Positions 1 through 14,331 of a DNA stretch of 64,000 bases are shown here, piece after piece. The notes beneath the pieces were generated by a model. The model was not told where the DNA came from, searched no databases, and saw only the letters and a program-made list of their open reading frames with translations. This DNA is from Chitinophagaceae bacterium (lineage in GTDB: Bacteria > Bacteroidota > Bacteroidia > Chitinophagales > Chitinophagaceae). Position 1 is the first letter of the stretch. Every line of letters starts with the position of its first letter. Position numbers and translations under genes: made by a program. Where the stretch lies: assembly GCA_044221225.1 (NCBI GenBank), contig JBGAPQ010000018.1, positions 10,809 to 74,808 on the forward strand, in the 5' to 3' direction.

Positions 1-525
1 TTTTTCTATATCGGGCAGGTTGCGGCTGGCCTTGTGCCAGTCGTAGTTCCTGTTGGGGTTTTCATTTATAAAGGGTATGTAATAATACAAGTGCTGTACC
101 TGCATGTGCTCAGTTGTTTTTTTCCTGCATGTGCTGACCACAAAATCTTTTGTTTCGGCAGGCAGCTGCACCAGGTTCAGGTCAAATTTTCTGCCGTTCC
201 ATGCAAACCGGTTTTTATACTCCTGTATAAACCGGTACAGCAATGGCACCCCTTCCTGCATGGCCCAGATGGCGGCATGGCCGTTGCGCTCCCTGAACTG
301 TATTTTGGGATAGCGTACAATGGTTTTCTTTAGTCCGTCTTCCGTTCTTTCGTTACTGAATATCTCCTGAGCCTGCCCGCCAGGTATGCAACGCAACACG
401 GCTTCACGAAAGTCATGTATCTGTGCCGGCCCTATCTTGAGACTGAACTCTGCCAGCATGGAATTGATGAGGGGGTTGGTTGTTTTTCTTCTGGTGAGTA
501 TTTTTTCGGGGGTGAGTAATTCCAT
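1..525 (-). CDS. cas6: Cas6-family CRISPR RNA endoribonuclease (Cas6b-like), N-terminal 175 codons; the gene runs off the left edge
   Basis: It is missing from the ORF track because it has no in-window stop. The reverse-strand ATG at 525-523 opens MELLTPEKILTRRKTTNPLINSMLAEFSLKIGPAQIHDFREAVLRCIPGGQAQEIFSNERTEDGLKKTIVRYPKIQFRERNGHAAIWAMQEGVPLLYRFIQEYK..., and I checked by hand that it stays open to base 1. The pattern FRxAV ... RYPxIQ[FY][KR] ... G.AAI matches what I recall for Cas6b_N-type Cas6. It lies on the same strand, 176 nt downstream of the cmr operon. Confidence 0.55.
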   Translation of the reverse strand, partial: MELLTPEKILTRRKTTNPLINSMLAEFSLKIGPAQIHDFREAVLRCIPGGQAQEIFSNERTEDGLKKTIVRYPKIQFRERNGHAAIWAMQEGVPLLYRFIQEYKNRFAWNGRKFDLNLVQLPAETKDFVVSTCRKKTTEHMQVQHLYYYIPFINENPNRNYDWHKASRNLPDIEK

Positions 526-701
526 TGTAATTGTTTTTAGATTCAGGTGTTTTATTGGAATAATAGCCTTATGATTTAATTTTTCCGATCGTACCAAATA
601 ATTAGCTTTCAGCGAATCCTCTACTAAAATTCCTCACTAGTATCTTCATAGATTTTTCTTCTATCGGTTCTGTAACAATATAAAAGCCACTGTTTCGTTC
701 A

Positions 702-1565
702 TCAATCACTATCTACTCTCTGTTTCCATACCGCTGATAATCTGTCGCCATGCTTTTCATACAATGAACCTGGAGTCGGAAATGCATCATAAAGAATACA
801 GTTATACTCAGCAAAATTGATAAACAAATCATCCAGTTTAGGCTTACTCTTTAATCCTTCTAGTTTAGTATCAATTTCTCTTAACAGTTTAGCTTTTTTA
901 ATAAACGAATTGTAATAAGTCAAAACATTAAAAGCAAAAACTGTATTAACCAATAAAACCAGGTATTGAGATACATTTAAACTTTGGGTCGCCTTATCTC
1001 CTGCAGATTCACTTAAAACAATCATCCCTGCAATTACAGATATTAATATAACAACAAACATTGCCACTATTAAATTCTTTATTGCTCTCCCATGTAATTC
1101 CATTAAAGAGGATGTCCAAAATGAATTTTCCTGAATATGTTCAGCCAGCATTTCGTTTTTTTCTTTTCTATCTGTATAATAGTCAGATTCTTCCTTTGGA
1201 TTTTTTCTGGCAAGTTCAATAACTGATTTACTTACTTGCGATATCAAATAAGCCTGCTCCGCCTTATTATTTGCAGTAGGAAATACTTTTCTTATCAAGT
1301 CCAATTTTCTTATTCTTTCACCAATATCATACGCATACCTGAATTTATCCTGGTAGCGGTTGTCAAGTAAAATAGCAAAAACAGAAATAACGAAAACTCC
1401 CCAAATTGAAATACTATTAACAGTCAACCCCGGGAAAAATATTACTCCGAGATTTATAGAAAAAATTATGCCTTTTATCCAAAAACCCGTTTTAAGGAAA
1501 GTATATGCCATCTTATATTGAGCACTCATGAGGGAGGATATGTTTGGTATTTCATTTTTACTCAT
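702..1565 (-). CDS. 4-TM membrane protein (S-4TM/SLATT-like candidate effector), last gene of the cmr operon
   Basis: 287 aa. Two N-terminal hydrophobic helices (GFWIKGIIFSINLGVIFFPGL, ISIWGVFVISVFAILL) are followed by a ~100 aa charged loop ending DYY...QENSFW. Two more helices follow (LIVAMFVVILISVIAGMIVL, YLVLLVNTVFAFNVLTYY), then a ~70 aa tail with PGSLYEK. The start overlaps the HEPN stop by 8 nt. The architecture and motifs match ORF 8455-9366. Confidence 0.6.
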   Translation of the reverse strand: MSKNEIPNISSLMSAQYKMAYTFLKTGFWIKGIIFSINLGVIFFPGLTVNSISIWGVFVISVFAILLDNRYQDKFRYAYDIGERIRKLDLIRKVFPTANNKAEQAYLISQVSKSVIELARKNPKEESDYYTDRKEKNEMLAEHIQENSFWTSSLMELHGRAIKNLIVAMFVVILISVIAGMIVLSESAGDKATQSLNVSQYLVLLVNTVFAFNVLTYYNSFIKKAKLLREIDTKLEGLKSKPKLDDLFINFAEYNCILYDAFPTPGSLYEKHGDRLSAVWKQRVDSD

Positions 1566-1911
1566 TGCAAAATATTTTTTTTATTGTTGAGCAATTCTTG
1601 TCAAAGAAATCATACTCATATTTAGTTACGATAGTATTTGCATCCCATTCATTAATGATCGAGCTTGTATATAAATAGTAAATGCATTTTTGGGCATGAA
1701 TCGTGTCCTGAAGTGAAATAAATTCAAATATTGCCTTTTGCGTACTGTCAAAATCTACCCCTTTTTCTTCAAGAATATGGAATATCAGACTTCTTATACT
1801 TGCCCACTTGATCTGAATTGCTGATAAGTACAATTTCTCTTCAAGAAGTAACATAACCGCTTTTTCAAATTCACTTTGCCTTTGATAATACTCTTTATAT
1901 TTCAACTCCAT
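1558..1911 (-). CDS. HEPN-domain protein (partner of the upstream MNT)
   Basis: I use the internal ATG at 1911 (MELKYKEYYQRQSEFEKAV...). It gives a ~117 aa all-helical protein with an Rx4H motif (IRSLIFH). It overlaps the MNT stop (1895) by 17 nt, as is typical for MNT-HEPN pairs. The longer ORF-track version (to 2046) would overlap half of the MNT gene. Confidence 0.55.
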   Translation of the reverse strand: MELKYKEYYQRQSEFEKAVMLLLEEKLYLSAIQIKWASIRSLIFHILEEKGVDFDSTQKAIFEFISLQDTIHAQKCIYYLYTSSIINEWDANTIVTKYEYDFFDKNCSTIKKIFCNE

Positions 1912-2203
1912 TTTTTTGCACATTTTTGATAAAGGCATTGGGCTTTGCACTAAAATCAGAATTGTAAACAGGAAAAAACAAGAACATAAAATGATATTTT
2001 TGAATATACCCGATAGCCATTTCACTTGTTTTGGTGACGAAGTCAAACTTATTTACTCCATTAGTAATTACTACTACAAAGTCCAACTCTGTGTTTAAGA
2101 AAGTTTCTTTCCGAAAATTCCCTATTAAGAATAATCTTTCAACGCTGATTACTTCACTTAGCCCCTTTTTGATTTCTCTTGCCAGTTCTATAGTGTTTTT
2201 CAT
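1895..2203 (-). CDS. Minimal nucleotidyltransferase (MNT, Pol-beta superfamily)
   Basis: 102 aa. LFLIGNFRKETFLNTELDFVVVI fits the hG[GS]x9-13[DE]h[DE] Pol-beta NTase signature, with GS replaced by GN and the acidic pair as ELD. It starts 1 nt after the cmr6 stop. Confidence 0.55.
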   Translation of the reverse strand: MKNTIELAREIKKGLSEVISVERLFLIGNFRKETFLNTELDFVVVITNGVNKFDFVTKTSEMAIGYIQKYHFMFLFFPVYNSDFSAKPNAFIKNVQKNGVEI

Positions 2204-2204
2204 G

Positions 2205-3119
2205 CTATGCTTTTGTCATTGTGGTCAATAACTGCCCATAACCCACATTGGTTTTAGCACCTGTCCCCGTATATTCAAGTATACTTTTAAACAATTCCAT
2301 AATAGCCTGTCTTCTTAATCCCAGACCTGGAATATCCTGCAACAAAAACTGAAAGCTGAATTTTACTTTAGGCCGTATTTTCAGAAAATTTAGCGGTACC
2401 GGGTTCTTCAAAGGATCAGGATGCGGTGCTATGCTGTCCGTTTCAAATATCATATTTTCTTTGGCGCCGGATATATAAGCATTATAAAAAATAAACCGGT
2501 CATAAATACTTAAGTATTCATTATCTCCGGCCTCTTTGGTTTTGTCCAGGTCTACCCCTTCAAATATTGCCAGTTCAAGCCGGTGCACTTTTTTTATTTT
2601 CTCTGTTTCTTCAAGTCCTTTCCACCCGGTCAGTTCAGCAATAAATTCAACCTTGCTTTTCTGAATGTCAGTAATATCTTTTTCCTTTGGTAACTCATTT
2701 AATTTCCGGCCCAGTTGGGGGAACTCACTCCGCAATACACCCTTTACGCTGCTGCCGGGTATGCAGGGAAGCCCTGTAGTATGGTCAAAATAAAATCCCA
2801 TTTTAAATTCGGCTTCATTATCGCTCTGGTGTGTGTAACCGGTGCCGATAAGCAGTCCGGGGTAGGTAGTGGTAAATTCTATTTCTGTCAGCCAAATACT
2901 TTCCTCTTTATTCAACCGCAGACATTGATAATCCCCGGCCTGCAGTGCAAAGTTTTGCAGCTTCCTGTTGGCATCTTCAATAACTGGCTTATTACTTTTT
3001 TTGAGTTCTTTAAAATCATCTTTGTCTATCGGTTTTTCCGGGCTGAACACAACCCTGTTGTTTCCTGTCCCGGTTTCATGCTGGTAATATCCTTTATAAA
3101 AAAACTCCCTTGCATTCAT
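2205..3119 (-). CDS. cmr6: Type III-B RAMP protein Cmr6
   Basis: 304 aa. It has the RAMP motif GLPCIPGSSVKGVLRSEF and a C-terminal glycine-rich loop GTGAKTNVGYGQL. It sits directly after cmr5. Confidence 0.8.
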   Translation of the reverse strand: MNAREFFYKGYYQHETGTGNNRVVFSPEKPIDKDDFKELKKSNKPVIEDANRKLQNFALQAGDYQCLRLNKEESIWLTEIEFTTTYPGLLIGTGYTHQSDNEAEFKMGFYFDHTTGLPCIPGSSVKGVLRSEFPQLGRKLNELPKEKDITDIQKSKVEFIAELTGWKGLEETEKIKKVHRLELAIFEGVDLDKTKEAGDNEYLSIYDRFIFYNAYISGAKENMIFETDSIAPHPDPLKNPVPLNFLKIRPKVKFSFQFLLQDIPGLGLRRQAIMELFKSILEYTGTGAKTNVGYGQLLTTMTKA

Positions 3120-3120
3120 A

Positions 3121-3519
3121 TCAGTTAGTTTTTACCTGTTTAAAATTCCGTAGGCTGAGTTTTATGGCCACCACTGCGTCCATAATTAGTGGTTTCAGCG
3201 CTGCTTTTTCCTGCGGGCTCTTAGCCAATAAAAAATTCAACAGCCCATTTTTTTCATCAGCAATTGGCAAACCCTCTTTGCTGCGCAGTACGGCGCTGAC
3301 TATACCCAGTATTTCATACCGGTGTGGCTTATCACTATCCCTGTCTTTATGTATATCCGTATAGAAAGACACGGCAGGCAGCAGGCTGCTGGCGATGATG
3401 GCAGGCCCTAATGATGCAGCATACCCGTCATACTCTTCTGCTACCTTATTACCCCTGCCAATGCCTTCCCGGATAACCCTCAGTGCATCCGGTAAATAGT
3501 TTTCAATCCTTGTCTTCAT
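3121..3519 (-). CDS. cmr5: Type III-B small subunit Cmr5
   Basis: 132 aa, helical. YDGYAASLGPAIIASSLLPAVSFY resembles the Cmr5 core motif. It lies between cmr4 and cmr6. Confidence 0.7.
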   Translation of the reverse strand: MKTRIENYLPDALRVIREGIGRGNKVAEEYDGYAASLGPAIIASSLLPAVSFYTDIHKDRDSDKPHRYEILGIVSAVLRSKEGLPIADEKNGLLNFLLAKSPQEKAALKPLIMDAVVAIKLSLRNFKQVKTN

Positions 3520-4196
3520 CAGTGTTTATTTAATTTGGTGAATTTGCACAGGCCATACCCTACAGTAGCATTGGCCCCAACCTGGATTAAGGATGTGGTG
3601 ATTTCTTTATTGAAATCATCAAATAAGCTGTTGTCTTTTTCTTCATAAATAATACCGGTAATAAAAACTGTTTTGTGTGGCACCACTCTTTCATACCAAA
3701 GGTTCTGGCTGATGCCGTTTTCAAGATGATTGCGGGCAATTACCGGCAGATCGTCAACCGCTTCATTAAAAGCGGCTGAGTTGTTTACAGAATCTTTCAC
3801 TCTCCAGTCTGTGTTCATTTCGTATCCAAGAAGCTTGTACTTCTCAGCATACAGTCTGCTGATAGTATTACCACAATGTACCAGTTTGTAATAAGGGCTT
3901 TCTGTTTGCGGCGATGGTAAAGCTGCCAGGTCTGCAGCAAGAAAACTGAAACTGCCGGCCTGTTGTACTTTCTGTTTATCCTTGTCTTCACTGCAACCAA
4001 AAACTTTATCCACATGTTGCCACTTTCGGTGCTCCAGGAATTCCCTCAGCGCACCCTTCAGGCTGCTCGCATAAATAGTGGGCAGGCCTGAAGCGGCATC
4101 CCTTTGTATTTCCTTATCTACAATTTCATAATTGCTGTCGCCACTGCCTGCATGCAGGTTGGTAATGGCTTCTATGGTGTAAATAGCTGTTGTCAT
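3519..4196 (-). CDS. cmr4: Type III-B backbone RAMP / target-RNA cleaving subunit Cmr4
   Basis: 225 aa. ITNLHAGSGDSNYEIVDKEIQRDAASGLPTIYASSLKGALRE and the C-terminal GANATVGYG are classical Cmr4/Csm3-type RAMP motifs, including the acidic residue in the VDKEIQRD segment. Confidence 0.85.
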   Translation of the reverse strand: MTTAIYTIEAITNLHAGSGDSNYEIVDKEIQRDAASGLPTIYASSLKGALREFLEHRKWQHVDKVFGCSEDKDKQKVQQAGSFSFLAADLAALPSPQTESPYYKLVHCGNTISRLYAEKYKLLGYEMNTDWRVKDSVNNSAAFNEAVDDLPVIARNHLENGISQNLWYERVVPHKTVFITGIIYEEKDNSLFDDFNKEITTSLIQVGANATVGYGLCKFTKLNKH

Positions 4197-4205
4197 ATTC
4201 TTACA

Positions 4206-5282
4206 TTAAAAGTTCCTGATAAACTGGTTATATCCTATCGAAGTAAAACCCTGATGGCCTAGCAACCCCACAACCCTATCTTTTTTTGCTCCGTCAGCAA
4301 ATAACAAAGAGCCCTGCTTTAGCAGGTAAGTGGTTTCAACTGGCTTGTATAATTGCTTTTCATCACCTGCCAGGCTGCCAAGTCTGGAAAAATTGGTAAC
4401 TGTTTTGGGTGTCCTTATATTACGGAAAGCTTTTGCCCGCAAAACAGCATAGCTGATGTGTTCCTCCATTTCAGCCATGCTACTTACATAAGCATCTGTA
4501 AGCAGCAGCACACAGGGAGCAGATTGTGGCAGGTATGCGCTGAACAATGTTGTTAATTTATCCATCATACTGCTCCATATAGTGAAGCCATTTTCAGTAT
4601 AAGAAATGGAAAACATTTTTTTCTCACCGCCAAACGGAAGTAACCCTGGCAGCTTATTTATATCGACACTTCCATCTACAACTGCCTGGAAAGCTATTGC
4701 ACAGTTCTTAAGCCGGTAAAATTGCTGTTTGTAAAAGGCCCCTTCGTCTGTTTCCCTGTTATTGGTTTTGCCCTTATCAATACCTATATGGGTTTCGTGG
4801 CAAAATAAAGTACTGTCATCAACCAGTTCGCCGCTGACAATATTCAACCACCTTGGTGCAAATTCATTTTTGGGGTTATAATTTATTGCCGAAAACTTTC
4901 GGGCTGACAGCCGGTTATTATAAATAGCTGATTCGCCAGATACAGCTAATGACATTGTTACCATCCGGTTATTTTCTTCCTGCAGCAATGGAGGGCATTT
5001 ATATAACACCTCATTTTTGCTGTTGACGAGATAAAGCGGACTGATAGAATGAATGAAACCAAAATGCTGATCCTCTATCCCGGGGTTAAAACTTTCTCCG
5101 ATTTCATAACCTGCACAAAAGAAGGCATGGCGCAGCAGGCCCAGCAGTCCTGTCTGCTGCGGCAATGGATTGCTTTTCACAGAAAAGTTTCTAATCCCTT
5201 TGGCTCCGTATTCAAAGGTTTCATTACTGCCAAAAAAATAGTAATCAAGCGGTCTTATGGTTATTTGTATCGTTTTACTCAT
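4206..5282 (-). CDS. cmr3: Type III-B Cmr3
   Basis: 358 aa. The N-terminus IRPLDYYFFGSNETFE...NPLPQQTGLLGLLRHAFF and the internal LPFGGEKKMF fit the Cmr3 pattern. It lies between cas10 and cmr4. Confidence 0.8.
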   Translation of the reverse strand: MSKTIQITIRPLDYYFFGSNETFEYGAKGIRNFSVKSNPLPQQTGLLGLLRHAFFCAGYEIGESFNPGIEDQHFGFIHSISPLYLVNSKNEVLYKCPPLLQEENNRMVTMSLAVSGESAIYNNRLSARKFSAINYNPKNEFAPRWLNIVSGELVDDSTLFCHETHIGIDKGKTNNRETDEGAFYKQQFYRLKNCAIAFQAVVDGSVDINKLPGLLPFGGEKKMFSISYTENGFTIWSSMMDKLTTLFSAYLPQSAPCVLLLTDAYVSSMAEMEEHISYAVLRAKAFRNIRTPKTVTNFSRLGSLAGDEKQLYKPVETTYLLKQGSLLFADGAKKDRVVGLLGHQGFTSIGYNQFIRNF

Positions 5283-6903
5283 GGGCTGGCTGGTTTAAAA
5301 ACTGAAACATACGCAGGCAGGCAAACAACGTTTTAAATGTTTTGTCTGCATCGCCGGTTTCTTTATCCAACAATTCGGTAAACTCCCTGACCATCCGGAG
5401 ATAATTTTCATTATCAGTGAGCCTGGATATTTCCTTATGTATTTTCTCGTTCATGTGATTCTCAAAGAAGTTTCCCAGGCTGTTATTACGTATGGCATCC
5501 TTATACAACACCTGAATTTCCCTGAACTTATGTATAGTTGATGCCAGGAAGTTTATGTCCTTGAAGTTGTCGCCATTGTCAAGCATGTTCGTAATAAAAT
5601 ACTCCATGGCAGGGCCTTTGGTCAGTTCTGACCCAAACAGTTGTCCACTATGTTTCTGTACTTCAAATCCAAGCCTGTTTTTAAATCCTGAGTTCTTAAT
5701 ACGCATTAGAGCATCATGAGCTGCATTCAATGCATCAGCCATCGGGTACTTATAATAGCTGATGCCAATTCCGTAGCTGAGTGATACAGGGTCTTTAATC
5801 AGGCCGCTAAGCTTGTTCAGTTCAGCATCCGGAAACTCATTATCTATAGCGCTGAGTAATGCAAAAAAGTGTTTGCCTGTTTGCCTGCTGGTTTCAACAT
5901 TTCCATTAGCCAGCGGCAGAGCAAACAGCAAATCATCACCCCCAATAAAAATGGGAATTCCCCCATAATCAACAATCAATTTTGCCGCTTTACCGAAAAA
6001 TCGGGCAAGATGGGAAGAGTAGCTTTTAATTTTTCCCTCCTCATTGCCGAGTGCCCTCAGGCATTTTCCTACATTATCGCCATCTGCATAGACAAACGCA
6101 ATGTATTTGTGCCTTAACCTGAAATCTTTATAATTATCTTTTAAAGCCTGCATCAATTGGCTCTCCAGTTCCTGCTCCTCTTTTACTCTTTCATAGCGGG
6201 GTTTATTGCTCTGTATATAAGTGCACATTTTTTGACTGGCGGGTTCAGTAACCAGGTCAAAGTAATTCTGCTTGCCGGCTTTATATTTTAAATCCCTTGT
6301 ACAAAGTTCAATGATAGAAGGCAGTCGCTTATAGCCTTTTGCTCCGCATGTATAATGAATAAAAATGTCTCCCCCGCCTAATTGAAGGTTTTTATGCCCA
6401 TCATCGTATAATGCCTGTATATTATCGTCTAATGCAGGTACAAAGTCTACATCATTAGATGATACTTTCTCATATAGTTCTGCAGTATCGAGTAGTCTAT
6501 TTAACTCCAGAATAGCATTGGGGCCATTTTCATCAGCGTTAACTGATACAGCGCTGAAACTGGCATATTTATCAATCTGCTCCTTACTTATTCCTGTTAT
6601 TCTATACAATTCACTGCAAGCCTTCTCAAATACATTATTCATTTGCTCTGTCTTCATAGTACTTGTTTTCCAAAAAGCCCGGTCAGGATATATACCTGCA
6701 CCATGAATATGCAAACTTCCGTCTGCAGGCACAGGCGACAGCAATGTTCCGATATTTTGCTTTTCGGCCTCCGTTAATATCTCCCGCATCAGTATCGAAA
6801 AGAAATAGCTGGAAGACCAAAGCTCCCTCGTACTCCTGGCTTGCAGGATAGTATTATAAATGGGGCCTATGGTTATGGCGAGGTAGTTATTTAGCATAAT
6901 CAA
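5275..6903 (-). CDS. cas10: Cas10/Cmr2, short form without the HD domain, cyclase palm intact
   Basis: 542 aa. It begins directly with YLAITIGPIYNTILQARSTRELWSSSYFFSILM, the segment that normally follows the HD domain. It has HGAGIYPDR, a first palm FVYADGDNVGKCL and the catalytic GGDDLLFALP. No H-D dyad lies upstream of these motifs. Confidence 0.85.
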   Translation of the reverse strand: MIMLNNYLAITIGPIYNTILQARSTRELWSSSYFFSILMREILTEAEKQNIGTLLSPVPADGSLHIHGAGIYPDRAFWKTSTMKTEQMNNVFEKACSELYRITGISKEQIDKYASFSAVSVNADENGPNAILELNRLLDTAELYEKVSSNDVDFVPALDDNIQALYDDGHKNLQLGGGDIFIHYTCGAKGYKRLPSIIELCTRDLKYKAGKQNYFDLVTEPASQKMCTYIQSNKPRYERVKEEQELESQLMQALKDNYKDFRLRHKYIAFVYADGDNVGKCLRALGNEEGKIKSYSSHLARFFGKAAKLIVDYGGIPIFIGGDDLLFALPLANGNVETSRQTGKHFFALLSAIDNEFPDAELNKLSGLIKDPVSLSYGIGISYYKYPMADALNAAHDALMRIKNSGFKNRLGFEVQKHSGQLFGSELTKGPAMEYFITNMLDNGDNFKDINFLASTIHKFREIQVLYKDAIRNNSLGNFFENHMNEKIHKEISRLTDNENYLRMVREFTELLDKETGDADKTFKTLFACLRMFQFLNQPAHE

Positions 6904-8434
6904 ATTGTGAAAAGTAATCTTTTAAAAATGTAATAAAATCCCCCTTTCGTTGACTGGTCAAATTTGGGGTTCTAAACAATTCTCTTCCCGGCCTTGTTTC
7001 CGAATTTCTTAATTGTATTTTGTCACCAATTTGTTGCCAGCCATTTCTTGTTTTTTCCCTTACAGTAAAAAAAATCGAAAACGGTTTGTTCATAATAACA
7101 TCAAAATCATTCTTTATGAAGACATAAAGCTGCCACTCAATTAATTTATAAACAACAGGAGATTGAAATCTATCTATATCATCGTTATGAAAAGTCACAA
7201 CAAACTTTCTGTTCGAGTCTGTAGTTCCAAATTCATACTGCTCCGGCAAACCAAGAATAGCTCTGATAAAAAAATATTGACTATCAGAAAAACTATCATC
7301 CCAACTATTGTCACCCTCAAGCTCGTTAACTGATGGCGGTCTGTCTGCTTTCAGGCTTAAGCCTTGTCTCTCAGAATTAGTAAGATTATTAATTAATTTT
7401 TTTATTAGCCGTTTTTCCCAAACTTCGTTTCTGTCAATAAAGTGCAGAAACAACTTAGACTTAATATATTTCTTAGGGTTACCTGGGTTTACCCCACTCT
7501 TTAAGATTCTATTACTAAGCTCAATCTTATCAAGTATTTCAATGTAACTGGTGTATGGTAATACGTCATTTAAAAAATAATTTTTGCGAAGTTGAAATGC
7601 TTCATCAATTAATGAAGCAAAAACAGAGAACTCGCTTTTTAGTGCAAGTTTTTTTCTTTCTGCAAGAGACAAAAATTCTCCCTTTACTTTTTTAAGAATT
7701 TCGTCGTTTCTCCAAAGCTCATTAATCGGCTCATCCCCGATGATGTTTTCAGGAATAGAGTAAGAAAATTTCCTTTTTGCGTTGTATTTCTTTATTGTAT
7801 CCCGATTTACATTTCTATCAAACTTTATTGAGAAAAACTCTGAAGAATTCAGATTATAAAGATTTTCATCAAGATTTTCTCCAATATCAAGTTGGTCAAT
7901 AAGTTGATGTGTTCGCAAAAAAAGACTATGAACTTGTTGCTCAGCCGGAAGGCTAACATTAATATCATCTATTTCTGAAATAGTAAAGGAACCATAGCCT
8001 TTGGAAACTCTTTTTCCAAAGTTGGTAACAATAAAAAAATCAGTTATATGTTTTCGAATCTCCCGATTCAGATCCGCATTAAATGCTTTTATCATTCCAG
8101 ATAATCCATCAAATAACATTAAACTTTCTTCGGCCCCAACTACTGACTTTTTAAAGCTGATGCCTTTGACGGTATTAAATGAAAGTTTATAGTCAAATGC
8201 ATTATATCCCTTTTCGTATTTTGCCTTCAGAGTTTCTTCCGTTTGTTTAGTATATCCAATAAAGTAAGTTTTCGCTTTCTCAAAATCTCTTTGAAATACC
8301 ATATCAAGAAGGTATCTATCCAATTTTGGCTTTACCTCAGTAGCTCTTAAAGTAGCTCCGTCCTGGTTTGGCTGAAAGTGAATAAGAGGTGTGTGTTGTC
8401 TTAATTTAAATATCAGCGTATGCGGCAAACTCAT
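6887..8434 (-). CDS. cmr1: Type III-B Cmr1 (double-RAMP) with a large internal insertion
   Basis: 515 aa. The N-terminal RAMP is LIFKLRQHTPLIHFQPNQDGATLRATEVKPKLDRYL, the G-loop is FGKRVSKGYGSFTI, and the second RAMP has AILGLPEQYEF and DRFQSPVVYKLIE. It is the first cmr gene, upstream of cas10. Confidence 0.7.
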   Translation of the reverse strand: MSLPHTLIFKLRQHTPLIHFQPNQDGATLRATEVKPKLDRYLLDMVFQRDFEKAKTYFIGYTKQTEETLKAKYEKGYNAFDYKLSFNTVKGISFKKSVVGAEESLMLFDGLSGMIKAFNADLNREIRKHITDFFIVTNFGKRVSKGYGSFTISEIDDINVSLPAEQQVHSLFLRTHQLIDQLDIGENLDENLYNLNSSEFFSIKFDRNVNRDTIKKYNAKRKFSYSIPENIIGDEPINELWRNDEILKKVKGEFLSLAERKKLALKSEFSVFASLIDEAFQLRKNYFLNDVLPYTSYIEILDKIELSNRILKSGVNPGNPKKYIKSKLFLHFIDRNEVWEKRLIKKLINNLTNSERQGLSLKADRPPSVNELEGDNSWDDSFSDSQYFFIRAILGLPEQYEFGTTDSNRKFVVTFHNDDIDRFQSPVVYKLIEWQLYVFIKNDFDVIMNKPFSIFFTVREKTRNGWQQIGDKIQLRNSETRPGRELFRTPNLTSQRKGDFITFLKDYFSQFDYAK

Positions 8435-8454
8435 AATTCTTTCAGGTTTAATGT

Positions 8455-9366
8455 CTATTCTTCTATGGCTTTCATTCTGCTAATAAGCTCTTTGAGGATC
8501 ATTTTCATTTCCGTTTCATCCTTTTCTCTGAATCTTTTGTAAACCCAATCCGGCACCAGGGAACCATTCATCCTGTTCTCAAAAATTTTATCTTGAATGG
8601 TTCTGGAAATATGGGCAAGCTGAGCTTTTTCAAGTGTTTTCTTTTCCAGTTCTTCAAAAGTGCTTTGAAAACAATCATTTAACTGTTTTAGCTTCTTACT
8701 TACATTAAGATGATCTGTTAATTCCTTTTGTAAAAAAATAAAAAAAGGCATCAGCACTCCCAGCATCAAAACAGCTTCTGTCAATTTGATATCGTTTACT
8801 AAACCGGCAATCAGTAATATGACCGGTATCGATATCAGCACAACTATTATAAGAACCTTGTACCTTTTCCTAAGTTTTAGGTCCCACCAGCTATTGGAAC
8901 GTTGACAAATTAATGCTGCGATGTATTGGTCTTTTACATTGTTAATTTCTTCACCATACCAGTCTTTCAGATCATCAGTACTTCCCTGCCCATTTTGGTA
9001 TTGATCATGATTTTTAAGAATATCTTCCAGTGTAAACATGTCAGATATACTCATCAATGGCCTGGATAATTTCAAAACAGTACAATCGAATTCTTCCTGG
9101 ATAGATGCAGCTTTCTCTTTAAGTTTGGCAATAAATGGGGTAAATCCTATGACTTCAACCACCGTAAATACAATACCATATGCTGCTCCATAAATACCCC
9201 ATTGCGGATTAAACAAAGTCACTACAGCAATAACAACCGGAATTAAAACACTAAAGAGAAACTGAATAGCATAAAACATCTTTGCTGAACTATAGAGCTC
9301 TCTTTGGGCAGCCAGTAATTTAATATTGTGAGGCTCATTTTGCAGTTCGGCTATATTATTCTTCAT
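8455..9366 (-). CDS. 4-TM membrane protein (S-4TM/SLATT-like candidate effector), first gene of the cmr operon
   Basis: 303 aa. The helices are MFYAIQFLFSVLIPVVIAVVTLF and GIYGAAYGIVFTVVEVIGFTPFIA, then a soluble loop ending DWY...QRSNSWW, then VLIIVVLISIPVILLIAGLV and AVLMLGVLMPFFIFLQ. A ~95 aa helical tail carries PDWVYKR. Its stop lies 20 nt upstream of the cmr1 start. Confidence 0.6.
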   Translation of the reverse strand: MKNNIAELQNEPHNIKLLAAQRELYSSAKMFYAIQFLFSVLIPVVIAVVTLFNPQWGIYGAAYGIVFTVVEVIGFTPFIAKLKEKAASIQEEFDCTVLKLSRPLMSISDMFTLEDILKNHDQYQNGQGSTDDLKDWYGEEINNVKDQYIAALICQRSNSWWDLKLRKRYKVLIIVVLISIPVILLIAGLVNDIKLTEAVLMLGVLMPFFIFLQKELTDHLNVSKKLKQLNDCFQSTFEELEKKTLEKAQLAHISRTIQDKIFENRMNGSLVPDWVYKRFREKDETEMKMILKELISRMKAIEE

Positions 9367-9810
9367 TTATAATAATTAAAGTATTATAAAAAGATTCTTT
9401 GAAAAAAGTAAATATTCTACCCTTAGGTAAGGGCCAATATACCTATGCTACAATTAAACAGAGAAATAATCAGGAGTTATTCAGCAGATTGGATAATTAC
9501 AGATTTATCTAAATTAAGCCAAGGGAATATTATCCGCAAAAAAATTCTGATATTTTATTCCGGTACACCCCGGATACCCTTCATGCAACCTTATAAACAA
9601 AAGTTCGCATTATATTTTGAATGCATCCTGGAAAATAACGGCCTTTCGCCAATGGCAGCAGAGGAAACCCAAGGCCCGAATTACCCCTGCTCACAAAGTG
9701 AGATTATCAAATCATATTACAGGGTTGTATTGTAAGAGTAAAACCTTAGGCTGCCTTACCGAAAGTTTTTTTTATGGATTATTCTCACCAGAATACCTGC
9801 TTTAACCCGC

Positions 9811-10900: not shown

Positions 10901-11482
10901 TCAGCTGATTTTCTCCACCTGCATATAATTCAGTTCAACAGGAGTAGAACGGCCGAATATCTTAACAGTTACTTTCAATTTCTTTTTCTCATCATTCACC
11001 TCTTCAATCACTCCATTAAAGTCATTAAACGGTCCTTCTATTATTTTGATAGTTTCACCTACAATAAATGGTTCACTCATACTTACTCCGCCAGCCTCGG
11101 CCATTTCGTCCATTTTACCCAGCATCTTATTCACTTCTGCCTTACGGAGTGCAATGGGATTTTCTTTACCAAGGAAATGAATAACATTAGTCGTATTCTT
11201 GATAACATCTCTCAGATCGTCGCTTAACTTTCCTTCAGCAATCTCAATCATTACATAGCCGGGATAGTAATTCCTTTCTCTCATTACTTTTTTTCCACTG
11301 GCTACTTTATACACTTTCTCTACCGGAAGAAATACCTGCTTAACAATCTCACTCCAGCCACCACGGGAAATTTCTTTATCAAGATATTCCTTAACTTTTT
11401 TTTCTTTACCGCTTACAACACGCAACACATACCATTTGGTCTCCTGCTGCTGTACGTTTTCAGTATTTGTAGTTACTTCCAT
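10901..11482 (-). CDS. nusG: Transcription termination/antitermination factor NusG
   Basis: 193 aa. It has WYVLRVVSGKEKKV (NGN domain) and a KOW-like C-terminus GETIKIIEGPFNDFNGVIEEV. It lies directly after secE. Confidence 0.95.
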   Translation of the reverse strand: MEVTTNTENVQQQETKWYVLRVVSGKEKKVKEYLDKEISRGGWSEIVKQVFLPVEKVYKVASGKKVMRERNYYPGYVMIEIAEGKLSDDLRDVIKNTTNVIHFLGKENPIALRKAEVNKMLGKMDEMAEAGGVSMSEPFIVGETIKIIEGPFNDFNGVIEEVNDEKKKLKVTVKIFGRSTPVELNYMQVEKIS

Positions 11483-11676
11483 TAGAAAAGTTGTTTGTAA
11501 ATAAACTTCAGCCCGTTACCTGTTACAAAATCCATTCCGAGCACTATAAAAGTGATTACGATAGTAGCAACGAGTACTATCATTGTTGACTGTTGCAACT
11601 GCAGCCAGGTTGGCCAGCTCACTTTCTCTGTCAGTTCTTTGTAACTCTCTCTGAAGTATGTAGTAATCTTATTCAT
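11482..11676 (-). CDS. secE: Preprotein translocase subunit SecE
   Basis: 64 aa with a single C-terminal TM helix. YFRESYKELTEKVSWPTW is the typical SecE N-terminus. Its end overlaps the nusG start by 1 nt. Confidence 0.9.
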   Translation of the reverse strand: MNKITTYFRESYKELTEKVSWPTWLQLQQSTMIVLVATIVITFIVLGMDFVTGNGLKFIYKQLF

Positions 11677-11713
11677 ACTAGTTTATTTGATGTTCAATGT
11701 TCGAGGTTTGATG

Positions 11714-11738
11714 TTAAAATCCGGGCCCCGGATTTTAA
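11714..11738 (-). terminator. Palindromic hairpin between tRNA-Trp and secE (possible attenuator or processing site)
   Basis: ttaaaatccggg/ccccggattttaa is a near-perfect inverted repeat flanked by T/A runs on both strands. Confidence 0.3.
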
Positions 11739-11761
11739 CCCTTATACTTCAAACTATTTAG

Positions 11762-11832
11762 CACGGGTACTAGGATTCGAACCCAGACTGAAGGTTTTGG
11801 AGACCTCTGTACTACCGTTATACTATACCCGT
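11762..11832 (-). tRNA. tRNA-Trp (CCA)
   Basis: Hand-folded. The acceptor is ACGGGTA/TACCCGT. The anticodon arm is GAGGT-CTCCAAA-ACCTT (anticodon CCA). The T-loop is GGTTCGAATCC. The position between tuf and secE is the canonical one. Confidence 0.9.
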
Positions 11833-11935
11833 AAGAAGGCCTCCCCAAGCCCCTCCGATGGAGGGGTTTCCGAAGACCCAAAAAAAGAACTTTTTTCTAA
11901 TAACAAAGTACCCAGGCTCTTCGCCCAAGTACTTT

Positions 11936-11943
11936 GCAAATTT
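11936..11943 (-). promoter_or_regulatory. Bacteroidota sigma-A -7 box (TAAATTTG) upstream of tRNA-Trp/secE/nusG
   Basis: This is an exact TAnnTTTG match on the minus strand, about 100 nt upstream of tRNA-Trp. Confidence 0.35.
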
Positions 11944-12009
11944 ATTAAGACTCTCCGCAAAGTCCCCCTGCAGGGAGACCCGCCTGCCGGCAGGCAGGTT
12001 TAGAGGGCT

Positions 12010-13197
12010 TTATTTTAAAATCTCAGTAACCTGTCCGGCGCCTACTGTACGGCCGCCTTCACGAATCGCAAACTTCAAACCTTTCTCCATCGCAATCGGC
12101 TGGATCAGTTTTACAGTCAATGAAGTGTTGTCACCAGGCATAACCATTTCAGTACCAGCATTCAGCTCCACTTCTCCGGTAACGTCTGTAGTACGGAAAT
12201 AGAACTGAGGACGATATTTCTGGAAGAATGGAGTATGACGTCCACCTTCTTCTTTGCTCAGTACGTAAACTTCGGCTTTGAATTCAGTATGCGGAGTGAT
12301 AGAACCTGGCTTAACGATAACCATACCACGACGGATTTGGTTCTTGTCGATACCACGAAGCAGCAAACCAGCATTATCCCCGGCTTCACCTTCGTCAAGC
12401 AACTTGCGGAACATTTCCACACCAGTTACTGTAGAAGTAAGCGGTTCAGCAATCAAACCAACTATTTCAACCGGCTCATTCACTTTAATACGACCTCTTT
12501 CGATACGACCGGTAGCCACTGTACCACGACCTGTGATGGAGAATACATCTTCCACAGACATCAGGAACGGCTGATCAACCGGGCGGGGAGGCAGCGGAAT
12601 GTAAGAATCTACAGCAGACATGAGTTCTTCAACCTGCTTAACAGCTTCAGGATCGCCATCAAGAGCTTTTACTGCAGAACCTTTAATGATTGGAGTAGTA
12701 GCGCCATCAAAACCGTAGAAAGTCAGCAGGTCACGGATTTCCATTTCCACTAACTCTAACAGTTCAGGATCGTCAACCAGATCCACTTTGTTCATAAATA
12801 CAACCATTTTAGGTACACCTACCTGGCGGGCCAGAAGGATGTGTTCCTTGGTTTGAGGCATAGGACCATCAGTGGCAGCCACAACCAGAATAGCGCCGTC
12901 CATCTGGGCAGCACCAGTAATCATGTTTTTAACATAGTCTGCGTGACCGGGACAGTCAACGTGAGCATAGTGACGATTTTCAGTCTGATACTCAACGTGT
13001 GCTGTATTGATGGTGATACCCCTTTCTTTTTCTTCGGGAGCAGCATCAATTTCATCATATTTCTTTGCCTCAGCCATTCCTTTTTTAGAAAGTATGGTTG
13101 TGATTGCAGCAGTTAAAGTGGTTTTTCCATGGTCAATGTGGCCGATGGTACCAACGTTAACATGGGGCTTGTCCCTTTTGAAGGTCTCTTTTGCCAT
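12010..13197 (-). CDS. tuf: Translation elongation factor Tu
   Basis: 395 aa. It contains [23 protein letters not shown] and NKVDLVDD, and is full-length EF-Tu. Confidence 0.99.
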
Positions 13198-13327
13198 TGT
13201 TATCGGTTTTAAAGTTGTGTTTTACAATTTTTGTTTTTTATCCGTAAGCCAAAGGTATTACTACCACAGGCTTTTTTCCTACTCTGTTTTCACTATCTCT
13301 TTCTCTCAGTCCTTTTGTTTAAAGATG

Positions 13328-13399
<72 letters not shown>

Positions 13400-13442
13400 T
13401 GGTCTTACCAGATCCGCCTTCCGCTGCGCCATGGCGGTTTTG

Positions 13443-13515
13443 AGCGGGAGACCGGGCTCGAACCGGCCACCTGAAGCTTGGAAGGCTACCGCTCTACCAA
13501 ATGAGCTACTCCCGC
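13443..13515 (-). tRNA. tRNA-Gly (TCC)
   Basis: Hand-folded. The acceptor is GCGGGAG/CTCCCGC. The anticodon loop is CTTCCAA. The T-loop is GGTTCGAGCCC. Confidence 0.85.
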
Positions 13516-13545
13516 TGATAATTTTATTTCAAATAAAGAACTATG

Positions 13546-13628
13546 TGGGCAAGGATGGATTCGAACCACCGAACTCCGAAGAGGACAGATTTACAGTCTG
13601 TTGCCGTTGGCCACTTGGCTACTTGCCC
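13546..13628 (-). tRNA. tRNA-Tyr (GTA), long variable arm
   Basis: Hand-folded. The acceptor is GGGCAAG/CTTGCCC. The anticodon loop is CTGTAAA. It has a long variable arm and the T-loop GGTTCGAATCC. Confidence 0.85.
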
Positions 13629-13634
13629 GCCCGG

Positions 13635-13707
13635 AGCCACCTGCCAGAATCGAACTGGCGACCTACTGATTACAAATCAGTTGCTCTACCAGCTGAGCTA
13701 AGGTGGC
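13635..13707 (-). tRNA. tRNA-Thr (TGT)
   Basis: Hand-folded. The acceptor is GCCACCT/AGGTGGC. The anticodon arm is CTGAT-TTTGTAA-ATCAG. The T-loop is AGTTCGATTCT. Confidence 0.9.
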
Positions 13708-13789: not shown

Positions 13790-13845
13790 AGGGAATTTGG
13801 ATATTGCAAAAATTTTATAGGAGATTTTTCTGCTGACAATCAGGA

Positions 13846-13872
13846 AATAAAAAAGACCTCCGGAGAGGTCTT
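13846..13872 (-). terminator. Rho-independent terminator after hpf
   Basis: The hairpin is agacctc-cgga-gaggtct. The minus strand follows it with ttttttat. It starts 8 nt after the hpf stop. Confidence 0.7.
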
Positions 13873-13879
13873 GAATTTT

Positions 13880-14179
13880 TTAAGCTGCTTGTTTTTCTTT
13901 TTTTCGTTTTATCTGGCTTACGATTGATTCGAAAGCACTGTCAAAGGATTCTTCAAATGATTTACTGGTTGCTTTTACAAAAAAGTTGTGACGTGGTACA
14001 TGTACTCTGATTTCTGCAATCTTGTCCTTAATTGAATGCACCACGTTGTCTAATTTCAAATACACATTTACCTGGATGATGCGATCGCTAAACACTGTCA
14101 GCTTTTCCAGTTTACGATTTACATAATCTACTAACTTGCTGTCAGCGTTGAAATGAACAGTTTGAATTTTTACGTTCAT
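13880..14179 (-). CDS. hpf: Ribosome hibernation promoting factor (HPF/RaiA family)
   Basis: MNVKIQTVHFNADSKLVDYVNRKLEKL... is a typical short HPF. I prefer the ATG at 14179 to the upstream in-frame ATGs at 14185, 14188 and 14206. Confidence 0.85.
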   Translation of the reverse strand: MNVKIQTVHFNADSKLVDYVNRKLEKLTVFSDRIIQVNVYLKLDNVVHSIKDKIAEIRVHVPRHNFFVKATSKSFEESFDSAFESIVSQIKRKKEKQAA

Positions 14180-14331
14180 GGTCATCATTTTTAAACTGTG
14201 AAACAATAAATAAAGAACTTTTCTGAAAATTTTTCTAAGGGTTCGGTTCTTTTATCATGTTCAAGTTACTACAAAAGATGTTTTATACCAAGTAAAAAAA
14301 AGCCATTTTTTATCAGGTTAAGGGAAAACTT

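Follow-up and report, generated by a model that had tools for sequence, protein, structure and literature searches.

Two divergent S-4TM superfamily proteins encoded within a type III-B CRISPR-Cas operon of a Chitinophagaceae bacterium

Results

Organization of the locus

The window analyzed in this study, a 64,000-nucleotide stretch of contig JBGAPQ010000018.1 (assembly GCA_044221225.1), contains a type III-B CRISPR-Cas operon in which ten genes lie on the minus strand with gaps of no more than 20 nt. The first of these encodes B (8455..9366, minus strand, 303 aa), an S-4TM membrane protein matching Pfam PF18159 over its full length (E = 7e-74). B stands 20 nt upstream of a cmr1-like RAMP gene (6887..8434, minus strand, 515 aa), which was recognized by the PADLOC Cmr1 model (E = 7e-60) and had no Pfam match; its product shares only 55% identity, in the N-terminal part, with its orthologue in the sister locus L004. 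The operon continues on the minus strand with cas10/cmr2 (5275..6903, 542 aa; Pfam Cmr2_N and Cas10 palm2, TIGR02577), cmr3 (4206..5282; Pfam Cas_Cmr3, E = 4e-18), cmr4 (3519..4196; TIGR02580, E = 3.5e-41), cmr5 (3121..3519; Pfam Cas_Cmr5, E = 5.5e-6), and cmr6 (2205..3119; TIGR01898, E = 8e-30), with cmr4 and cmr5 being 91% and 92% identical to L004, respectively.

Downstream of cmr6, and on the same strand, there is a cassette of three overlapping genes. Cassette gene 1 (1895..2203, minus strand, 102 aa) encodes a minimal Pol-beta-type nucleotidyltransferase (NTase), gene 2 (1558..1911, minus strand, ATG at 1911, 117 aa) encodes a small helical protein, and gene 3 (702..1565, minus strand, 287 aa) encodes A, a divergent membrane protein of the S-4TM superfamily. 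The overlaps of the helical-protein gene measure 17 nt with the NTase gene and 8 nt with that for A. The 5' part of cas6b (1..525, minus strand), identified by reading the sequence, runs past the window edge, and according to the genes called along this contig (L014: Cas6b_N/C, RVT_1, Cas1, Cas2), it is followed by RT, cas1, and cas2. No CRISPR array was found within the window; the array and the adaptation genes lie past its left edge, and the locus ends with a HigB toxin gene.

Since gaps of no more than 20 nt separate the ten genes, A is almost certainly co-transcribed with the Cmr genes, and no terminator-like intergenic site was seen from B to A. A sigma-70 promoter scan was also performed, with a model that is ill suited to a Bacteroidota genome.

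Homology between A and B

The initial annotation, based on alignment by eye, had described A and B as divergent paralogues with three shared positional motifs. Both reading frames were confirmed, and the motifs were located at DYY 128–130, NSFW 147–150, and PGSLYEK 265–271 in A and at DWY 135–137, NSWW 158–161, and PDWVYKR 272–278 in B. Deep profiles were needed to detect the similarity of the two proteins, as pairwise BLASTP (E = 0.5, non-significant) and HHalign with shallow profiles (P = 0.0028, 10.8% probability, in the same register as by eye) were too weak. The comparison of a 73-sequence A-family profile with the B family by HHalign gave 97.4% probability and E = 1.4e-11 over 253 columns (A 4–280, B 12–287), nearly the full length, with all three motifs in register (DYY with DWY, ENSFW with SNSWW, and P..LY with P..VY). 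A had no match in Pfam and was placed at the superfamily level only, by this alignment and by its match to the PADLOC CBASS "4TM" model PDLC00724 (E = 2.7e-9). Pfam S_4TM was matched directly by three of the 73 A-family members (down to E = 3e-8), and the A-family HMM in turn matched many S-4TM proteins at 23–32 bits.

The motifs are also conserved among the homologues of each protein. In the B family, W136, Y137, and R280 are invariant, and Q155, R156, N158, W161, and D273 are nearly so. The A family shows full or almost full conservation of Y129, Q145, and N147, with YY, QES.FWT, and APPIP...Y in its consensus. The non-significant BLASTP result, the low probability from shallow profiles, and the missing Pfam S_4TM match of A would fit a convergent or compositional resemblance of alpha-helical 4-TM proteins, with motifs matched by chance. 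Such an explanation is extremely improbable and is effectively refuted by the deep alignment, whose E-value of 1.4e-11 covers the soluble loop and the tail, by the match of A to the PADLOC 4TM model, by the A-family members matching PF18159, by the reciprocal HMM matches, and by the NTase-partnered genomic contexts common to both families. Judged from these profiles, A and B are true homologues rather than random membrane ORFs; both belong to the S-4TM superfamily, within which their two deeply separated clades diverged long ago.

The layout proposed for both proteins, namely two TM helices, a loop, two further TM helices, and a tail, was recovered, with the fourth helix less distinct in A. 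Kyte-Doolittle analysis identified four TM segments in B (34–52, 57–75, 172–190, and 198–216), with outer turns of 4 and 7 residues, but only three segments above the threshold in A, in which the TM4 region (helix 198–236) is weakly hydrophobic. The AlphaFold model of B (pLDDT 91.3) is all helical, and that of A (pLDDT 74, medium confidence) has the same helix order and lengths. Sequence searches of solved structures with A and B gave no match, and a Foldseek search with the B model against the PDB and viral models gave nothing significant (best E = 0.66), so that no solved structure resembles B. Nucleotide binding and pore formation are predicted activities of S-4TM proteins.

An off-register BLAST match between A and B, together with weak SLATT matches, had prompted the idea that S-4TM is an internal duplication of two SLATT-like 2TM halves. 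It was rejected, the N-half and the C-half aligning with a probability of 1.7% in HHalign.

Genomic partners of B

B scored 249 bits against PF18159 (gathering cut-off 26.9), covering profile positions 1–290 of 291, and its best match to the PADLOC models of CBASS "4TM" effectors had E = 2e-81. PF18159 is S-4TM, the SMODS-associating 4TM effector, known as "4TM" in CBASS. Relatives of B are annotated as "S-4TM family putative pore-forming effector" in 935 plasmid records.

Every S-4TM locus at least 42% identical to B is followed by cmr1–cas10 (the window/L014, L004–6, L020, L021/L041, and L101), and the clade of B always lies 5' of these genes. Among the S-4TM loci with 41% identity or less, SMODS is adjacent in 74 and was not detected in the other 6, five of which have short flanks. 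The Cmr-linked S-4TM clade is monophyletic (100 of 100 NJ bootstraps) and nested inside the SMODS-linked S-4TMs, and the linkage was observed in five lineages with Cas10 identity down to 31% (L020). In the clade of B, the usual SMODS cyclase neighbor is swapped for a type III-B Cmr operon. Pfam searches revealed no SMODS/CD-NTase gene in the window operon, and in B and A they identified none of the known sensor domains such as CARF or SAVED. All 80 SMODS-linked S-4TMs have an Arg and a Trp at positions where the Cmr clade has other residues (A151 and F237 in B), possibly reflecting a ligand shift.

A literature search for S-4TM or 4TM together with type III CRISPR or Cas10 found no link; the paper by Burroughs et al. 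(2015), which reportedly defined S-4TM, lies outside the scope of that search. S-4TM is absent from the type III effectors of a 2024 effector survey and a 2025 classification.

Cas10 and its likely messenger

The Cas10 of this operon has no HD domain and retains an intact GGDD at residues 321–324. Its closest solved relative is PDB 9lq5_B, matched over the full length (E = 1.7e-39 with the single sequence, E = 3e-75 with the profile), which we infer from residue numbering to be the Cas10 of B. fragilis. In the alignment, D74 and E142 correspond to D70 and E151 of 9lq5_B, and all five S-4TM-linked Cas10s compared share these two residues and GGDD. D70 and E151 of the B. fragilis Cas10 have been tied to SAM-AMP synthesis (PMC10600005, PMC13294483), their conservation being defined on CorA-linked Cas10s. 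The double substitution D70N/E151R changes what the B. fragilis enzyme produces. Because D74 and E142 match D70 and E151, the messenger is probably SAM-AMP-like, the alternative being a cyclic oligoadenylate.

No NrN phosphodiesterase, DEDD, or SAM-AMP lyase was found at the checked S-4TM–Cmr loci (window/L014, L004/L005, and the L020 flanks), where a CorA-family effector was likewise missing. CorA systems come with a SAM-AMP-degrading enzyme of this kind, which is needed for immunity in B. fragilis (PMC12255297), and its absence here counts against SAM-AMP as the signal.

The three-gene cassette

The GC content of the cassette is 0.31–0.32, versus 0.41 for cmr6 and 0.48 for cas6b, and in the sister locus L004/L005, cmr6 directly abuts cas6b with no cassette. 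The cassette is a compositionally foreign, low-GC insert between cmr6 and cas6b, and A is not a local duplicate.

An exhaustive protein search yielded 266 representatives (clusters) of the A family; a further search with a diverse A alignment added only four new proteins, and a genome scan with the close A family found only 4 loci. The same two small genes were present directly upstream of every A homologue examined. The three-gene cassette occurs with the same overlaps and without Cmr or B in L001/2, L003, L010/11, L012, L013, L103, and L104, and in the five lineages with the closest relatives of A (56–73% identity), the cassette is present and neither Cmr nor B occurs within 6–10 kb. The cassette lies at or beside CRISPR genes in three of the ten cassette lineages examined (the window, L100, and L105). 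In L100, it is immediately upstream of an S-4TM–Cmr operon with overlapping stop and start codons, at identities to the window of only 25% for the A-like protein, 21% for the S-4TM, and 27% for Cas10, and the L100 S-4TM falls outside the clade of B (2 of 100 bootstraps); in L105, the cassette adjoins an orphan cas6b. The association of A with cas10 is only occasional (the window, L100, and possibly L105), most cassettes being CRISPR-free.

The cassette NTase was aligned over its full length with the 120-aa PDB entry 9xbd_E ("Nucleotidyltransferase domain-containing protein"; profile E = 5e-10) and matched PADLOC PDC-S09 (E = 1.9e-8), an unvalidated single-gene defense candidate. Its motif, G28-N...[E/D]-L-D41, has conserved carboxylates and a replacement of the canonical G-S serine; with G-N in place of G-S, its activity is putative.

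The helical protein had no match among Pfam and PDB sequences; W36, R40, S56, T57, Y81, W89, and D90 are invariant. HEPN identity was considered for this protein and dropped, given that Pfam and PDB provided no support and that the Rx4-6H histidine is not conserved: the position four residues after the invariant R40 is occupied by H, Y, Q, S, and others. In P0032/36/37/38/47, the helical protein is fused to the N-terminus of an A-type 4TM (E = 1e-11 to 1e-15). Fusions of A-type 4TMs with SMODS (P0040/43/51) and with an ANT(2'')-like NTase (P0030) also occur, and in Nonomuraea, SMODS is adjacent to an A-type 4TM.

Discussion

The present data are best explained if A and B belong to two distinct signaling modules stitched into one transcription unit, an interpretation that we consider probable. 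The first module (B-cmr1-cas10-cmr3-4-5-6) is a type III-B CRISPR-Cas interference complex together with its predicted effector. The HD-less Cas10 would act only via its GGDD palm domain; upon target RNA binding, it would make a nucleotide messenger, which may bind the conserved cytoplasmic helical bundle of B (the N-terminal helix, the TM2–TM3 loop, and the tail), and B would then open or disrupt the inner membrane, resulting in growth arrest or abortive infection. B is predicted to be a Cas10-signal-activated membrane effector, and it would occupy the position held by the partner of the SMODS cyclase in type I CBASS and by CorA in the Cmr system of B. fragilis. The second module (NTase, small helical protein, and A) is an autonomous, horizontally acquired cassette in which A would serve as the membrane effector, the minimal NTase may supply or control the signal for A, and the helical protein may be a cytoplasmic adaptor or sensor docking on the N-terminus of A. 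The strict separation of the modules is weakened by the co-occurrence seen in L100 and L105.

Several features link both modules to type I CBASS, in which SMODS is combined with 4TM, as in the E. coli CdnD12-4TM operon, which provides phage defense that requires cyclase activity (bioRxiv 10.1101/2023.05.21.541620). B matches PF18159 over its full length, SMODS adjoins those of its relatives with 41% identity or less, and the wider family of A is adjacent or fused to SMODS. The shared logic couples a nucleotide-synthesizing enzyme to a small 4-TM protein that kills the cell. Unlike in CBASS, however, the window has no SMODS/CD-NTase, and the signal for B would come from an RNA-guided Cas10 complex; the partners of A are a 102-aa minimal NTase and a separate helical protein, and the Arg and Trp invariant in CBASS are replaced in the Cmr-linked clade.

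The Cmr-CorA-NrN system of B. fragilis (Chi et al. 2023, PMC10600005) is likewise a type III-B system of Bacteroidota with an HD-less Cas10, carrying the D70 and E151 whose equivalents were found here, and its ancillary effector is a membrane protein. In our locus, by contrast, the predicted effector is S-4TM and not CorA, NrN, DEDD, and lyase are missing, and SAM-AMP is a putative product. Other small membrane proteins encoded beside cas10, namely Cam1, Csx23, Cam2, and Cam3, are thought to depolarize the membrane after messenger binding (PMC11229360). Their sensor is a CARF, a tetrameric soluble domain, or a REC, whereas B has none of these.

The initial annotation interpreted A and B as two diverged copies of one gene at opposite ends of one operon, forming a hetero-oligomeric pore or acting as two effectors tuned to different signals. 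The duplication does not agree with the separate clades, the separate partner genes, and the foreign character of the cassette. An obligate hetero-oligomeric pore is contradicted by the distribution, since the cassette occurs without B and Cmr in L001/2, L003, L010/11, L012, and L013; nor do related loci always carry both copies, as B–Cmr is found without A in L004/5, L020, and L041. Two effectors tuned to different signals is the proposal closest to the evidence. A joint system, in which A and B form a hetero-oligomeric pore or both read the Cas10 product under the regulation of the NTase and the helical protein, may be considered quite unlikely. The genes from B to A do lie on one strand with gaps of no more than 20 nt and no terminator-like site, the two homologous proteins share their helix layout, the cassette adjoins cas6b in both the window and L105, and the pairing recurs in L100, in another arrangement and at very low identity. 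However, the closest relatives of A in five lineages are without Cmr or B within 6–10 kb, the cassette is absent from three B–Cmr lineages, its GC content is foreign to its flanks, and A-type 4TMs elsewhere have their own NTase partners, including adjacent or fused SMODS. Moreover, as the L100 S-4TM is outside the clade of B (2 of 100 bootstraps), the co-occurrence in L100 represents an independent juxtaposition and not an inherited pair. Owing to the recurrence of the cassette at L100 and L105, it may still cooperate facultatively with Cmr.

The cassette could instead be a toxin-antitoxin or addiction module like MntA-HepT, in which nucleotidylylation by the NTase silences a toxin made up of the helical protein and the 4TM, with no diffusible messenger; we regard this as unlikely, although less so than the joint system. 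By the same unlikely account, the toxin would be freed when NTase activity is lost in the course of infection or when the locus itself is lost, and the presence of the cassette at CRISPR loci would reflect defense-island hitch-hiking or stabilization of the locus. MNT-HEPN modules are common near CRISPR loci, and in them, too, the gene for a minimal Pol-beta NTase overlaps that of a small helical protein downstream. The cassette NTase is MNT-sized and matches a solved NTase of 120 aa, the helical protein follows it in the HEPN position with invariant Tyr81 and Arg40, the three reading frames overlap in the manner of toxin-antitoxin operons, the HigB gene at the end of the locus indicates that such modules gather here, and PDC-S09 is only an unvalidated single-gene defense candidate. 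Unlike in MNT-HEPN, the helical protein has no detected HEPN similarity and no conserved Rx4-6H histidine, and a third gene, for the 4-TM protein, is always present and sometimes fused to that for the helical protein. In relatives of A, the partners are genuine SMODS second-messenger synthetases, which favors signaling over covalent neutralization.

A more far-reaching interpretation, tentative and on balance doubtful, is that the Cmr-linked S-4TM clade constitutes an unrecognized type III effector family gated by SAM-AMP or another non-cOA product and that the cassette is a functionally coupled second arm. If so, S-4TM would be the second effector family for that messenger, working without a dedicated NrN or lyase, and the cassette, instead of being a passenger, would provide a reserve effector at the membrane or modify the signal.

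S-4TM proteins rank with the most common effectors of CBASS, and their modes of signal sensing and membrane action are putative. Under the two-module interpretation, the Cmr-linked clade would join NucC and TIR-SAVED as an example of effectors exchanged between CBASS and type III CRISPR, and target RNA would serve as a programmable trigger for an S-4TM protein, making its mechanism experimentally tractable. Given the Cas10 residues, SAM-AMP signaling may extend beyond CorA effectors. The A family comprises 266 clusters, is invisible to Pfam, and always has a nucleotidyltransferase encoded next to it or within the same protein; it expands the S-4TM superfamily, and the combination of NTase, helical protein, and 4TM represents a compact three-gene candidate defense cassette missed by current annotation.

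Results

A (702-1565, minus strand, 287 aa) and B (8455-9366, minus strand, 303 aa), the two 4-TM membrane proteins of the gene string, are homologous as judged from their sequence profiles. Both ORFs and the three motifs on which the initial annotation had based their resemblance were found exactly where it had placed them, and the resemblance was confirmed far beyond chance by deep profile alignment and by PADLOC, Pfam and HMM matches. Pairwise BLASTP was not significant (E 0.5), and a first profile comparison was weak (10.8% probability, P 0.0028), since the word-indexed database returned only close relatives of A (13 proteins, at least 56% identity); its register already agreed with that of the annotation. 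When the A alignment was used for an exhaustive HMM search, 266 cluster representatives were recovered at E ≤0.001; an alignment of 73 of these, compared with the B-family alignment, gave 97.4% probability and E 1.4e-11 over 253 columns, spanning A 4-280 and B 12-287. This deep alignment places in register the loop-end aromatic pair (A Y129-Y130, B W136-Y137), the pre-TM3 motif (A Q-E-N-S-F-W, B Q-R-S-N-S-W-W) and the tail motif P-x-x-h-Y. Additionally, A matches the PADLOC CBASS '4TM' effector model PDLC00724 (E 2.7e-9), Pfam S_4TM was matched in 3 of the 73 A-family members (best E 3e-8), and the A-family HMM matched dozens of S-4TM proteins at 23-32 bits.

AlphaFold modelled long helices in the same succession in B (H12-52, H54-97, short ones, H147-190, H195-241, H247-267, H273-302; pLDDT 91.3) and in A (H9-43, H51-94, short ones, H136-187, H198-236, H244-258, with a poorly modelled tail; pLDDT 73.8). 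Four hydrophobic segments stand out clearly in B, whose outer turns are 4 and 7 residues long; the fourth of A is weak. Because the helices form two TM hairpins, hydropathy and the models place the N-terminus, the ~90-residue loop and the tail on one membrane side, which is probably cytoplasmic, since the loops are K/R-rich. No structure or biochemistry was found for any S-4TM family member. Giant-virus SLATT proteins in BFVD matched the B model (mf207d697f901) below threshold (best TMt 0.51, E 2.8), as did NCBIfam SLATT_1 the B sequence (E 0.076), and two A-family members gave weak SLATT_1/SLATT_6 matches. An internal duplication of S-4TM, considered because of the resemblance to the 2TM SLATT proteins, was dropped after a negative duplication test.

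Assignments by Pfam, NCBIfam and PADLOC showed that window positions 1-9366 carry a single close-packed minus-strand gene string, with gaps all ≤20 nt and several overlaps. B is its first gene, followed by a cmr1-like gene (6887-8434), cas10/cmr2 (5275-6903, 542 aa), cmr3, cmr4 and cmr5 in that order, cmr6 (2205-3119), and a three-gene cassette comprising a 102-aa gene (1895-2203), a 117-aa gene (1558-1911) and A; the start of cas6b (525 down to 1) follows after a 177-nt gap. Past the left edge, the contig (L014, reached via the A sequence) continues at L014 9562-13679 with cas6b and then an RT-associated adaptation module of a stand-alone RVT_1 reverse transcriptase, cas1 and cas2. Therefore, this is a complete type III-B CRISPR-Cas locus with RT-linked adaptation. 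Behind cas2 come a HigB toxin gene and the gene of its 118-aa partner, and the 1.2 kb past cas2 showed no CRISPR array. A 96-aa ORF divergent from B (9445-9735, plus strand), also called on the independent contigs L014 and L015, has no family match.

On its other side, the CRISPR locus lies just downstream of a tRNA cluster, tuf, tRNA-Trp, secE and nusG (10901-13707). The diverged Chitinophagaceae locus L004 likewise follows tuf, secE and nusG (L004 7421-9537), so the position is either a conserved site of integration or anciently syntenic. In L004, an NCBI MAG contig, cmr3 is broken into two ORFs of 134 and 213 aa (13798-14878); it is intact in the near-identical L005 (359 aa), and the split is probably an assembly frameshift. 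The window locus is a mosaic relative to L004, with identities of 85-92% for cmr4, cmr5 and cmr6, 73% for cas10, 66% for cmr3, 55% for cmr1 (N-terminal part), 49% for B and 32% for cas6b. B and cmr1 (6887-9366) have a GC content of 0.33-0.355 versus 0.41-0.46 for cas10 to cmr5. Turnover at the effector end of the operon, whether by sequence evolution or by exchange, is much faster than in the core.

B matches Pfam PF18159, the S-4TM ('SMODS-associating 4TM effector') family, over its full length (E 7e-74) as well as nine PADLOC CBASS 4TM models (best E 2e-81); its relatives are common on plasmids (935 records), annotated there as 'S-4TM family putative pore-forming effector'. At 42% identity to B or more, every S-4TM gene is immediately followed by cmr1-cas10: L004-6 (Chitinophagaceae MAG, 49%), L020 (46%), L101 (46%) and L021/L041 (42-43%). 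At ≤41% identity, SMODS was adjacent in 74 loci and was not detected in the other 6, five of which are short-flanked and one of which (L070) has full 7-kb flanks. In neighbour-joining trees of about 300 columns, the Cmr-linked proteins form one clade nested within the SMODS-linked ones (100/100 bootstraps). The link is old and maintained, since it persists in L020, whose Cas10 is only 31% identical. Therefore, B is an effector of the CBASS type that a type III-B system has captured.

The five Cmr-linked proteins all lack two residues that are invariant in 80 SMODS-linked S-4TMs: the Arg preceding the CQR motif is replaced by A/S/T (A151 in B, about 8916-8914, minus strand), and the Trp of the post-TM4 helix by F/I (F237, about 8658-8656, minus strand). 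The pattern is what a change of ligand would be expected to leave, and both are candidate specificity-determining positions. The S-4TM of the distant locus L100 has K and L at the equivalent sites.

A did not arise from B by tandem or local duplication; its cassette is a conserved unit. About 11 of the 266 A-family clusters were sampled for context, and each A homologue in these loci was preceded by the same pair of small genes, again with overlaps of 17 nt and 8 nt; A identity is 58-73% in L001/2, L003, L010/11, L012 and L013, 57% in L105 and 25-29% in L100, L103 and L104. The first gene is predicted to encode a minimal Pol-beta nucleotidyltransferase: its profile aligned over the full length with a solved 120-aa NTase (9xbd_E, E 5e-10), one Gly is invariant and an [E/D]-L-D motif is conserved. 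It also matches PADLOC PDC-S09, an unvalidated single-gene defence candidate. The second, helical protein has no family or PDB match. Its fusion to the N-terminal side of A-type 4TM domains in five cluster representatives (E 1e-11 to 1e-15) makes a contact with A very probable. A HEPN-like identity, considered from its position, was dropped, as the Rx4H histidine is not conserved.

Elsewhere in the A family, the C-terminal fusion partner is SMODS, in three cases, or an ANT(2'')-like NTase; in Nonomuraea, a SMODS gene overlaps at its end with the gene of an A-type protein. Together with the conserved NTase neighbour, these data indicate that the A clade behaves as S-4TM does, being a membrane effector invariably linked with a nucleotidyltransferase. 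A homologues in the database have neither a Pfam domain nor an informative name; the clade and its cassette are unannotated, and Pfam does not cover the clade. In members of about 755-780 aa (P0039, P0074, P0095, P0120, P0139) the A-type 4TM domain is N-terminal, and in P0039, the one scanned individually, the C-terminal region matched TCAD9 (ternary complex-associated domain 9) below the Pfam cut-off; TCAD9 was matched in 3 of 73 aligned members, which hints at yet another conflict-system context.

Discussion

The initial annotation regarded A and B as copies within one operon that might form a hetero-oligomeric pore or serve as two effectors for different signals. Their occurrence speaks against both an in-operon duplication and an obligate hetero-oligomer, as the two are not always found together in related loci: in five lineages of close A relatives, neither Cmr nor B lies within 6-10 kb of the cassette, and three B-Cmr lineages lack the cassette. 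In the sister locus L004/L005, cas6b starts 3 nt after cmr6, exactly where the window has the cassette, whose GC content is 0.305-0.323 versus 0.407 for cmr6 and 0.478 for cas6b. The cassette is thus an insertion between cmr6 and cas6b, a further argument against an in-operon duplication and an obligate hetero-oligomer.

Its placement is nevertheless not random, since it lies at or beside CRISPR genes in 3 of 10 lineages, which exceeds chance placement in a genome. In L100 (1382-8937), an NTase-helical-A-like cassette lies immediately upstream of an S_4TM gene (PF18159, E 1e-43), with overlapping stop and start, and cmr1-cas10-cmr3-cmr4 come after that gene; compared with the window, A is only 25%, S-4TM 21% and Cas10 27% identical, and this S-4TM falls outside the B clade (2/100 bootstraps). 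In L105 (2499-7575), the cassette is followed after 63 nt by an orphan cas6b, 22% identical to that of the window, and a STAND-like AAA_16/TPR NTPase; no cmr genes or CRISPR repeats were found on that contig. This adjacency could reflect defence-island clustering or real cooperation.

The 542-aa Cas10 starts with the Cmr2_N motif, keeps GGDD at 321-324 and lacks an HD domain; therefore, any immunity must pass via its nucleotide product. Of all solved proteins, the one nearest to it by a wide margin is 9lq5_B (E 1.7e-39; next best 1e-7), which we take to be the B. fragilis Cas10, as the residue numbers D70 and E151 coincide. A profile of five S-4TM-linked Cas10s aligned with 9lq5_B over the full length (E 3e-75), pairing window D74 with D70 and E142 with E151; neither residue varies among the five, one of which is from the very distant L100. 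As D70 and E151 of the B. fragilis enzyme are tied to SAM-AMP synthesis (PMC10600005, PMC13294483), this alignment favours SAM-AMP, or a molecule like it, as the messenger. The counter-evidence is that CorA, NrN, DEDD and lyase genes were absent from the S-4TM-Cmr loci whose flanks were checked, whereas immunity in CorA systems needs NrN or lyase activity (PMC12255297). The chances of SAM-AMP are roughly even, and the main alternative is cA3, which activates other effectors shared by CBASS and type III systems, such as NucC and TIR-SAVED (PMC11229360).

We propose that target RNA binding by Cmr would lead Cas10 to make the messenger, which would reach the cytoplasmic bundle of B, where conserved polar and aromatic positions are found (Q21, R22, Q90, E91, W136, Y137, Q155, R156, N158, W161, R255, Q258, R265 and R280); messenger-bound B would then compromise the membrane. 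In parallel, the cassette NTase may make an activator of A, by analogy with CBASS, or may restrain A by nucleotidylylation in a toxin-antitoxin-like manner. The SMODS fusions favour the activator. In E. coli CdnD12-4TM, phage defence by a 4TM effector depends on cyclase activity (bioRxiv 10.1101/2023.05.21.541620).

S-4TM is already known as a CBASS effector family, and type III systems borrow other CBASS effectors, such as NucC and TIR-SAVED (PMC11229360). Our search of full texts other than the S-4TM-defining paper returned no match for S-4TM or 4TM with type III CRISPR or Cas10, and S-4TM is absent as an effector from the 2024 type III effector survey and the 2025 classification. For CRISPR and CBASS signalling, the main interest of this locus is the pairing of a SAM-AMP-type Cas10 with a membrane effector other than CorA; additionally, it would provide a switch, programmable by RNA, with which S-4TM proteins can be studied.
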